Virus record (IMG/VR): IMGVR_UViG_2778261179_000014
Location: 1 to 30,147 of that record
Source: a virus
Lineage: Duplodnaviria; Heunggongvirae; Uroviricota; Caudoviricetes
DNA: 30,147 bases
Reading direction: 5' to 3' (one strand)
The position numbers were made by a program, and so were the translations under genes. The notes beneath the pieces are model-generated. The model saw nothing but the letters and a program-made list of their open reading frames with translations. It was not told the DNA's origin and searched no databases. Position 1 is the stretch's first letter. The number at the start of each line of letters is the position of its first letter. Shown piece after piece: positions 14,404 to 14,713 of this stretch.

Positions 14404-14479
14404 GGCCCTTTAGCTCAGTGGTGAGAGCGAGCGACTCATAATCGCCAGGTCGCTGGTTCAAATCCAGCAAGGGCCACCA
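14404..14479 (+). tRNA. tRNA with anticodon CAU, Ile2 (lysidine)-like
   Basis: Hand-folded cloverleaf: acceptor GGCCCTT/AAGGGCC, D-stem GCTC/GAGC, anticodon loop CTCATAA, T-arm GCTGG-TTCAAAT-CCAGC, encoded CCA. Resembles E. coli ileX from memory. Confidence 0.8.
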
Positions 14480-14480
14480 A

Positions 14481-14557
14481 CCGCCACTAGCTCATCAGGA
14501 AAGAGCGTCAACCCTTTAAGTTGAGTGTGCGAGGTTCGAGTCCCCGGTGGCGGTCCA
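14481..14557 (+). tRNA. tRNA-like gene with atypical anticodon loop CCTTTAA (anticodon UUU, Lys-type, isotype uncertain)
   Basis: Acceptor CCGCCAC/GTGGCGG (7 bp, C1-G72), D-stem GCTC/GAGC, anticodon stem TCAAC/GTTGA, T-arm CGAGG-TTCGAGT-CCCCG with one A-C mismatch, encoded CCA. Position 33 is C rather than the near-universal U. Confidence 0.55.
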
Positions 14558-14559
14558 GT

Positions 14560-14635
14560 GCCGACTTAGCTCAGTAGGTAGAGCAACTGACTTGTAATCA
14601 GTAGGTCACCAGTTCGATTCCGGTAGTCGGCACCA
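14560..14635 (+). tRNA. tRNA-Thr (anticodon UGU)
   Basis: Acceptor GCCGACT/AGTCGGC, D-arm GCTC-AGTAGGTA-GAGC, anticodon stem ACTGA/TCAGT with loop CTTGTAA, T-loop TTCGATT, encoded CCA. Resembles phage T4 tRNA-Thr from memory. Confidence 0.75.
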
Positions 14636-14638
14636 TAT

Positions 14639-14713
14639 GCGGGCATCGTATAATGGCTATTACCTCAGCCTTCCAAGCTGATGATGCGGGTTCGATTCCC
14701 GCTGCCCGCTCCA
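14639..14713 (+). tRNA. tRNA-Gly (anticodon UCC)
   Basis: Acceptor GCGGGCA/TGCCCGC, anticodon stem TCAGC/GCTGA with loop CTTCCAA, T-arm GCGGG-TTCGATT-CCCGC, encoded CCA. Resembles phage T4 tRNA-Gly from memory. Confidence 0.8.

Follow-up and report, generated by a model that had tools for sequence, protein, structure and literature searches.

The window analyzed here, a 30,147-nucleotide stretch of a lambdoid (Rac-like) Escherichia coli prophage (IMG/VR record IMGVR_UViG_2778261179_000014, positions 1 to 30,147), carries four tandem transfer RNA (tRNA) genes at 14404-14713, in a block that appears to be a self-promoted accessory module of lambdoid E. coli prophages and that occupies the site held in Shiga toxin (Stx) phages by ileZ-argN-argO. 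The cluster is a widespread, already annotated relative of ileZ-argN-argO; the element that seems new is its second member, a candidate tRNA-Lys with a switched anticodon and a cytosine at position 33, probably descended from an arginine tRNA. In the model that we propose, tRNAs 1, 3 and 4 would add decoding capacity for AUA, ACA and GGA, and tRNA 2 would be a structurally intact argN paralogue, with UUU in place of the UCG/UCU anticodon and C at position 33, that works as a mainly lysine-charged reader of AAA/AAG and whose non-host body may let it survive defence nucleases aimed at host tRNA-Lys. We put forward this picture of tRNA 2, as a working lysine decoder valued for nuclease evasion, tentatively and at somewhat less than an even chance; its expression in the window phage, the amino acid that it carries, its decoding with C33 and its nuclease resistance are features that we infer. 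A literature search, including a refined search on ileZ/argN/argO, retrieved no description of a C33 Lys variant, although the coverage of the literature was partial and the result is not proof of novelty.

Four tRNA genes in tandem

To call the tRNAs, ARAGORN was run on the whole 30-kb window and the Rfam covariance model RF00005 was applied with its gathering score of 29 bits. ARAGORN found exactly four genes, all on the plus strand, and RF00005 agreed, with scores well above the gathering score and E-values of 1.6e-6 to 1.3e-14, far beyond chance: tRNA 1 (14404..14479; CAU, of the tRNA-Ile2 type, ileZ; 72.5 bits), tRNA 2 (14481..14557; UUU, of the argN lineage, with the loop CCUUUAA; 44.4 bits), tRNA 3 (14560..14635; tRNA-Thr(UGU), identical to host thrU; 73.8 bits) and tRNA 4 (14639..14713; tRNA-Gly(UCC), identical to host glyT; 64.9 bits). 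Both methods thus bear out an earlier reading made from the letters of the window, hereafter the sequence-only reading, which had listed four tandem tRNAs with the anticodons CAU, UUU, UGU and UCC.

The entire block is present in 510 of 5,426 complete E. coli genomes (about 9%), where RefSeq labels it Ile-Lys-Thr-Gly. tRNA 2 is more widely distributed: 751 E. coli records, equivalent to some 14% of complete genomes, hold a best copy of at least 95% identity, and the gene is also present in isolated temperate phages such as vB_EcoM-606R7 and PhiR47_1. In a scan of one genome per species, the Lys-type stem-loop was confined to E. coli and Shigella.

Descent and structure of tRNA 2

Aligned to the Rfam model, tRNA 2 forms a full cloverleaf in which RF00005 model positions 1-71 are all matched, with an anticodon stem UCAAC/GUUGA, a loop C32 C33 U34 U35 U36 A37 A38 (C33 is base 14514 and the anticodon UUU spans 14515-14517), a C1-G72 pair, U73, A20 and an encoded CCA end. 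The window allele has U8, A14, G18-G19, A21, A37 and the conserved T-loop, carries C33 in place of the conserved U33, and contains a single non-standard T-stem pair, A51·C63 (bases 14532 and 14544). This alignment reproduces in every detail the fold drawn in the sequence-only reading, which had noted the loop CCUUUAA, C33, C1-G72 and the A-C mismatch in the T-stem. Nor does the unusual loop appear to be a misfolded canonical one, a possibility which that reading had itself raised: the Prokaryotic Genome Annotation Pipeline (PGAP) labels an identical allele tRNA-Lys, yet C33 remains. Minimum free energy folding of single sequences is uninformative on tRNA 2, since it failed to give a cloverleaf for the thrU copy, although that copy is identical to the host gene.

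The position of the gene points to its origin. tRNA 2 fills the argN slot of the Stx phages, where in both cases a 1-nucleotide spacer separates it from ileZ on its 5' side and the promoter hexamers are identical, and it is 84.4% identical to argN (UCG) of the Stx2 phage F349 and 89.6% identical to the Arg(UCU) gene of UTI89. C1-G72, U73, A20 and A51·C63 are common to tRNA 2 and argN. Because they are shared in this way, C1-G72, U73 and A51·C63 are lineage traits rather than fresh damage, and the suggestion that C1-G72 and the A·C mismatch mark decay of this particular gene does not hold; sister alleles have A-U, G-C or G-U at 51-63. The part of tRNA 2 that is specific to its clade is the loop, CCUUUAA where the Arg members have CUUCGAA or CUUCUAA. 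We therefore describe tRNA 2 as an argN paralogue with a switched anticodon, and not as a functional argN.

Other members of the lineage indicate how readily this scaffold changes its anticodon. It occurs as Arg UCG in the Stx phages, as Arg UCU in UTI89 and IMG/VR loci, as a Lys form with canonical U33, a repaired G51-C63 pair and the loop CUUUUAU in strain 8178, as a form with the 8-nucleotide loop CUUUUUAU in E. coli CI5 (L010:401-478), and as an Ile-like form with anticodon UAU and A33 in three IMG/VR loci (L023, L026 and L121). With UCG, UCU, UUU and UAU anticodons on one scaffold, the turnover is marked. The CI5 tRNA receives a 4-base anticodon, 'tttt', from ARAGORN and a tRNA-Lys label from PGAP; in form it resembles a +1 frameshift suppressor for A runs. 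The Ile(UAU)-like variants are 78 nucleotides long and have the same acceptor and T-arm scaffold, and five further loci (L022, L041, L079, L084 and L095) contain the same scaffold in an 82-nucleotide version with an irregular anticodon arm, called by ARAGORN as Val(AAC) or Tyr(AUA).

Candidate evasion of tRNA-Lys nucleases

Among enterobacterial defence nucleases, host tRNA-Lys(UUU) is a favored target: PrrC, AriB of the PARIS system and RloC all act on it, and P2 Old attacks it secondarily. PrrC cleaves 3' of U33 in tRNA-Lys (PMC2610378), and RloC makes the same cut and another one nucleotide downstream. AriB cuts tRNA-Lys(UUU) at UAAUC|A (U36-A41), and its cleavage is abolished by U39A and impaired by A41C and U16C (PMC12409363), while thrU is the chief victim of P2 Old, which nicks tRNA-Lys as well (PMC12445682). 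Phage tRNAs can make good the loss: phages are rescued from PrrC170 by a phage tRNA-Lys but not by host tRNA-Lys (PMC11555353), and infection in the presence of PARIS is rescued by phage tRNA-Lys variants, again not by the host tRNA (PMC12409363).

Alignment with host lysT places tRNA 2 at a distance from these targets. The host tRNA has U36AAUCA41 and U16; tRNA 2 has U36AAGUU41 (G39 and U41), C16 and C33, and so differs at all three AriB-sensitive positions as well as at the nucleotide whose 3' bond is cut by PrrC. A more specific proposal, in which a phage arginine tRNA was turned into a counter-defence tRNA-Lys, with a foreign body that lacks the AriB site and with C33 as an adaptive anti-nuclease change, at a position otherwise regarded as untouchable in bacterial tRNAs, to the 33p34 bond cut by PrrC and RloC, and which would spare AAA/AAG decoding when host tRNA-Lys(UUU) is destroyed, strikes us as doubtful.

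A UUU anticodon was also reached by a second route within the same module: at six loci the thrU copy carries G35U (UGU to UUU) together with A26G. This second origin of UUU may reflect selection for a Lys(UUU) reader carried by the phage. The loci are L007:480-555 (E. coli 2014EL-1346-6), L054, L080, L100, L104 and L116; the altered thrU copy forms a second 'tRNA-Lys' of the cluster, and in one locus it stands beside an Arg(UCU) tRNA 2. Across the IMG/VR clusters the thrU copies vary with their neighbor, those beside an Arg(UCU) tRNA 2 carrying U16C and U20C in 20 of 20 cases and those beside the Lys(C33) form keeping U16 and U20 in 67 of 72. U16C is among the changes that impair AriB cleavage of tRNA-Lys (PMC12409363).

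Possible maintenance of tRNA 2

Across 23 distinct Arg and Lys alleles of the argN lineage, standard pairs fill 96% of the cells, and changes on both sides of a pair were found at four pairs (3-70, 4-69, 30-40 and 51-63), as compared with none in a control in which the pairing partners were slid by 1-3 columns. These compensatory changes indicate that the lineage evolves as a tRNA and that the cloverleaf is kept. For polymorphism we used 73 IMG/VR four-gene clusters with a UUU tRNA 2, which together hold 12 tRNA 2 alleles. C33 and UUU are invariant in all 73, and the C33 stem-loop is found in at least 10 upstream and at least 12 downstream contexts. Stem changes that are common keep the pairing as G·U (C4U, C11U, C2U, C70U and C63U), and those that break pairs are mostly single copies. 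The number of segregating sites is 12 in tRNA 2 and 10, 12 and 8 in tRNAs 1, 3 and 4, respectively; a quicker decay of tRNA 2 than of its neighbors was thus not seen, in a test whose power is low at so little divergence. Taken together, the comparative evidence leans towards a tRNA 2 that is maintained, and it is also compatible with a crippled form.

Several observations weigh against a working tRNA-Lys that evades nucleases. G39, U41 and C16 came down from the Arg ancestor and did not evolve for resistance; U73 takes the place of the lysine discriminator A73, and the arginine element A20 is retained. U33, which supports the U-turn of the anticodon loop, is nearly universal and is conserved in bacterial tRNAs (PMC13276492). 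tRNA 2 scores 44 bits against RF00005 compared with 65-74 for its neighbors, U8C occurs in 17 of the 73 copies, a 1-nucleotide D-stem deletion is found in 9 related loci, and PGAP leaves the U8C and D-stem-deletion alleles uncalled (occasional damage is seen in all four tRNA genes, as expected of decaying prophages). The thrU copy of the window has an intact UAAUCA site and, because it is identical to the host gene, should be nuclease-sensitive; host thrU gave no rescue from P2 Old (PMC12445682); the escape of some phages from PARIS needs resistant Lys and Thr tRNAs together (PMC12409363); and the thrU-derived UUU tRNA retains UAAUCA. Finally, the idea that the window encodes a tRNA nuclease or another defence system against which tRNA 2 might confer immunity was rejected: PADLOC and Pfam scans of ten proteins from the early region (window 1-13135) detected no known gene of that kind, giving only the integrase, a RecE-like exonuclease, the repressor, YdaT and DUF968.

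The strongest competing explanation, which we consider a serious possibility without expecting it to be right, is that tRNA 2 is a crippled or neutral by-product of an Arg(UCU)-type gene, generated by the transitions C35U and U33C, that is poorly charged or decodes poorly and persists inside a useful mobile tRNA module, where it may aid the processing of a polycistronic precursor. It would fit the lowest covariance score of the four, the combination of C33, U73 and the A51·C63 mismatch, and the frequency of damaged alleles (G72A in addition to U8C and the D-stem deletions), which PGAP skips; even the intact allele is unannotated in two phage records. Codon usage points the same way. When the long open reading frames of the window were compared with a 50-kb sample of K-12, AGA and AGG stood at 6.8 and 5.6 per 1000 codons in the window and at 2.9 and 2.2 in K-12, an enrichment that would suit an Arg version of tRNA 2 and not a Lys version, and at so little divergence the rate comparison described above has limited power. 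Set against this are the invariance of C33 and UUU over 12 alleles, the occurrence of the C33 stem-loop in at least 10 prophage contexts, a number of segregating sites no higher than in host-identical neighbors, and the preservation of pairing by the stem changes that are widely carried. In addition, the sister allele with U33 and a repaired G51-C63 pair indicates that a Lys-reading form of the scaffold is viable, and UUU arose again in the thrU copy.

Codon supply, charging and decoding

In the same codon comparison, ATA (7.0 per 1000 in the window and 3.3 in K-12), ACA (15.5 and 7.2) and GGA (17.0 and 5.3) are 2-3 times enriched, whereas AAA is unchanged (38.2 and 37.4). The proposal of the sequence-only reading that the cluster supplies readers of rare codons therefore stands for AUA, ACA and GGA and fails for AAA. 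Codon supply accounts well for tRNAs 1, 3 and 4, and for the Arg(UCU) version of tRNA 2, but not for the Lys version: K-12 has at least five tRNA-Lys(UUU) genes in a single cluster, and since AAA is also not enriched, an extra supply of AAA readers is unlikely to be of benefit. Classical codon compensation by all four tRNAs, tRNA 2 included, draws on the enrichment of the other three codons, breaks down at tRNA 2 for these reasons, and is in our view quite unlikely.

The identity elements of tRNA 2 are mixed. Lysine identity depends on the UUU triplet, its main element, and on A73, whereas arginine identity in E. coli depends on A20 (the strongest element), C35, U/G36 and A/G73 (PMC9976931). 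Judged by the rules for lysyl-tRNA synthetase, tRNA 2 has the triplet (14515-14517 is TTT) and U73 as its discriminator; judged by those for arginyl-tRNA synthetase, it has A20 and U36, with U in place of C35 and again U at position 73, so that the arginine set is incomplete. Charging with lysine is the more likely outcome, and it may be inefficient or mixed. If arginine identity were retained through A20, tRNA 2 would be at least partly charged by arginyl-tRNA synthetase and would insert Arg at AAA/AAG, as a recoding or mistranslating tRNA. The retention of A20 and the absence of A73 speak for such a tRNA (PMC9976931); the loss of C35, a U73 that is neither A nor G, and the U35 and UUU triplet that drive lysine identity speak against it. 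Moreover, a constitutively expressed tRNA that widely put Arg in place of Lys should be weeded out by selection, whereas the allele is common; we regard this explanation as very unlikely.

C33 need not prevent decoding by a lysine-charged tRNA 2. Yeast tRNA-Leu(GAG), an elongator with a natural C33, works almost normally, and changing its C33 to U has minor effects only (PMC13492127). tRNA 2 also keeps U36-A37-A38, the determinant of the N6-threonylcarbamoyladenosine (t6A) modification at A37, and in the TsaBD-tRNA structure the U33 base makes no hydrogen bonds to the enzyme (PMC13276492). A shifted reading of the loop, with U34 at the turn, would make the anticodon UUA, a reader of UAA; we see no evidence for it.

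A role for tRNA 2 outside decoding, as a tRNA-like decoy for, or competitive inhibitor of, a nuclease that acts on tRNA-Lys, or as an element in regulation or recombination, is most improbable: the AriB authors do raise competitive inhibition by over-expressed viral tRNAs (PMC12409363) and mosaic junctions fall exactly at the 3' end of tRNA 2, but a decoy should retain the nuclease recognition site, the AriB site is missing from tRNA 2, and the full cloverleaf, the encoded CCA and the U36-A37-A38 determinant are kept as in a translating tRNA. Even combined, the decoy, an Arg-charging recoder and plain codon supply make up an unlikely set of alternatives.

The neighboring tRNAs

tRNA 1 is identical to ileZ (CAU, tRNA-Ile2) of the Stx2 phage F349 and is labelled tRNA-Ile throughout RefSeq; 2730 E. 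coli records hold a best copy with an identity of 99% or more. Other genes annotated as tRNA-Ile, probably ileX and ileY of the chromosome, match it at 89.5-92%. Its CAU anticodon sits on an Ile2-type body (ileX/ileY/ileZ), which assigns it by its sequence to the lysidine-modified class; the Met label given by ARAGORN is just the literal reading of CAU.

The Thr and Gly genes had been thought to resemble those of phage T4. Instead, tRNA 3 is 100% identical to K-12 thrU and 79% identical to T4 tRNA-Thr, and tRNA 4 is 100% identical to K-12 glyT and 84% identical to T4 tRNA-Gly. These exact host matches rule out a T4 origin, and the supposed resemblance is a general likeness between T4 tRNAs and host genes. 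Among the 73 four-gene clusters, the glyT copies of 12 carry the paired changes C6U and G66A, a compensatory replacement of C-G by U-A in the acceptor stem, which indicates that prophage copies drift from the host gene while the structure is kept.

Transcription signals and prophage setting

The tRNA block probably has a promoter of its own. A sigma-70-like TTGCAA-17 nt-TATTAT was found by scanning at 14366..14394 on the plus strand, ending 9 nucleotides before tRNA 1 with a G+C-rich gap between them, in line with the strong promoter and the place between Q and the lysis genes described in the sequence-only reading: the block is flanked by gene Q (13504-14193) on its 5' side and by the holin gene (15006-15221) on its 3' side. 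The Stx2 phage F349 has the same two hexamers, and TTGCAR-17-TATTAT is kept about 9 nucleotides before tRNA 1 across the clusters of the family, in IMG/VR and in E. coli, despite unrelated spacers between the hexamers. In a Stx2a prophage a transcription start has been mapped between tR' and the tRNAs (PMC7547250). The module of the window is thus probably transcribed from its own constitutive promoter, with read-through from pR' once Q acts.

Upstream of this promoter, a consensus scan identified a pR'-like late promoter, TTGCAA-17-TATATT (14177..14205, plus strand; 9/12 matches), that overlaps the end of Q and that we take to be functional. A hairpin scan gave a tR'-like late-terminator hairpin, AAAACCCGC-loop-GCGGGTTTT followed by a T run, at 14257..14286 on the plus strand (the scan reported the hairpin on the minus strand, and the T run lies on the plus strand), at which a short pR' transcript would stop. 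The transcript predicted between the two signals after Q (14205-14286) is about 75-80 nucleotides long and may be a counterpart of StxS, the regulatory small RNA that Stx phages make by terminating transcription early; at scores below the Rfam threshold, 14209-14285 matches isrK (22.7 bits) and isrJ (24.5 bits), small RNAs of Salmonella prophages.

On the other side of the block, the 290-nucleotide spacer that separates the glyT copy from the holin gene contains a structured segment (14720..14945, plus strand) with three perfect inverted repeats (14720-14765, 14773-14845 and 14844-14898, with arms of 11, 16 and 9 nucleotides) and a terminator-like hairpin at 14918-14936 whose T run extends to 14945. 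No Rfam family matches 14720-14945; from its position, this segment may be part of the tRNA module.

The remaining genes are those of a lambdoid prophage: an integrase, a RecE-like exonuclease, DicF, a CI-type repressor, YdaT, hok/sok, DUF968 and RusA, followed from Q onwards by the tRNAs, holin (15006), lysozyme, Rz, an HNH endonuclease and terminase. The early region also contains two RNAs recognized by Rfam, a sok antitoxin RNA of the hok/sok type (10649-10823, plus strand; 110 bits) and the DicF small RNA (4505-4556, minus strand; 73 bits). Mosaic breakpoints between related prophages coincide with tRNA borders, for example at window 14557/14558, the 3' end of tRNA 2. PPompW phages share sequence as far as the CCA end of tRNA 2 and diverge beyond it, phage phi467 has only tRNAs 3 and 4 in common with the window, and in strain 2013C-3264 tRNA 1 and a C33 tRNA 2 are followed by argO.

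Comparison with known systems

To date, the demonstrations that phage tRNAs replace host tRNAs destroyed by nucleases come from virulent phages, T5 and its relatives among them. If tRNA 2 works as we propose, temperate phages resident in about a seventh of E. coli genomes would be equipped with a spare tRNA-Lys under a constitutive promoter, such tRNAs could be seen to arise when a phage scaffold switches its anticodon, and there would be a natural bacterial replacement of the near-universal U33 with a concrete reason behind it. If tRNA 2 is dead, it would be a warning that the 'tRNA-Lys' annotated in hundreds of RefSeq genomes may not work.

The closest relative of the cluster is ileZ-argN-argO of the Stx phages (933W, Sakai and Stx2a_F349), which likewise comes after Q, pR' and tR' and ahead of the late genes, and shares with the cluster of the window identical promoter hexamers, an identical ileZ and, at 84% identity, the argN counterpart of tRNA 2. 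In contrast to that cluster, tRNA 2 has UUU rather than UCG/UCU and C33 rather than U33, exact copies of host thrU and glyT replace argO, and no stx genes follow the block of the window.

Change of identity through the anticodon has a laboratory precedent: Saks, Sampson and Abelson reportedly converted E. coli tRNA-Arg(UCU) in 1998 into a functional tRNA-Thr(UGU) by point mutation, in engineered or laboratory-selected form. As in that recruited tRNA, the shift in isoacceptor identity of tRNA 2 would come about by anticodon substitution on a conserved body; unlike it, tRNA 2 is a natural and widespread polymorphism of a mobile element. C in place of the near-universal U33 also occurs naturally in the eukaryotic initiator tRNA and in yeast tRNA-Leu(GAG), both eukaryotic, whereas tRNA 2 resides in an E. 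coli prophage.

The tRNA-Lys of T5 and the tRNA-Lys that rescues from PrrC170 belong to virulent phages and are related to tRNA-Lys, whereas tRNA 2 is carried by a temperate phage, descends from an Arg tRNA and has a resistance that is predicted; the parts of the sources available to us report no C33 for either of the two. Like the tRNA-Lys(UUU) of T5, which neutralises PARIS, tRNA 2 combines the anticodon of the targeted host tRNA with altered bases at the positions read by AriB (PMC12409363), these being A39, C41 and C16 in T5 and G39, U41 and C16 in tRNA 2.

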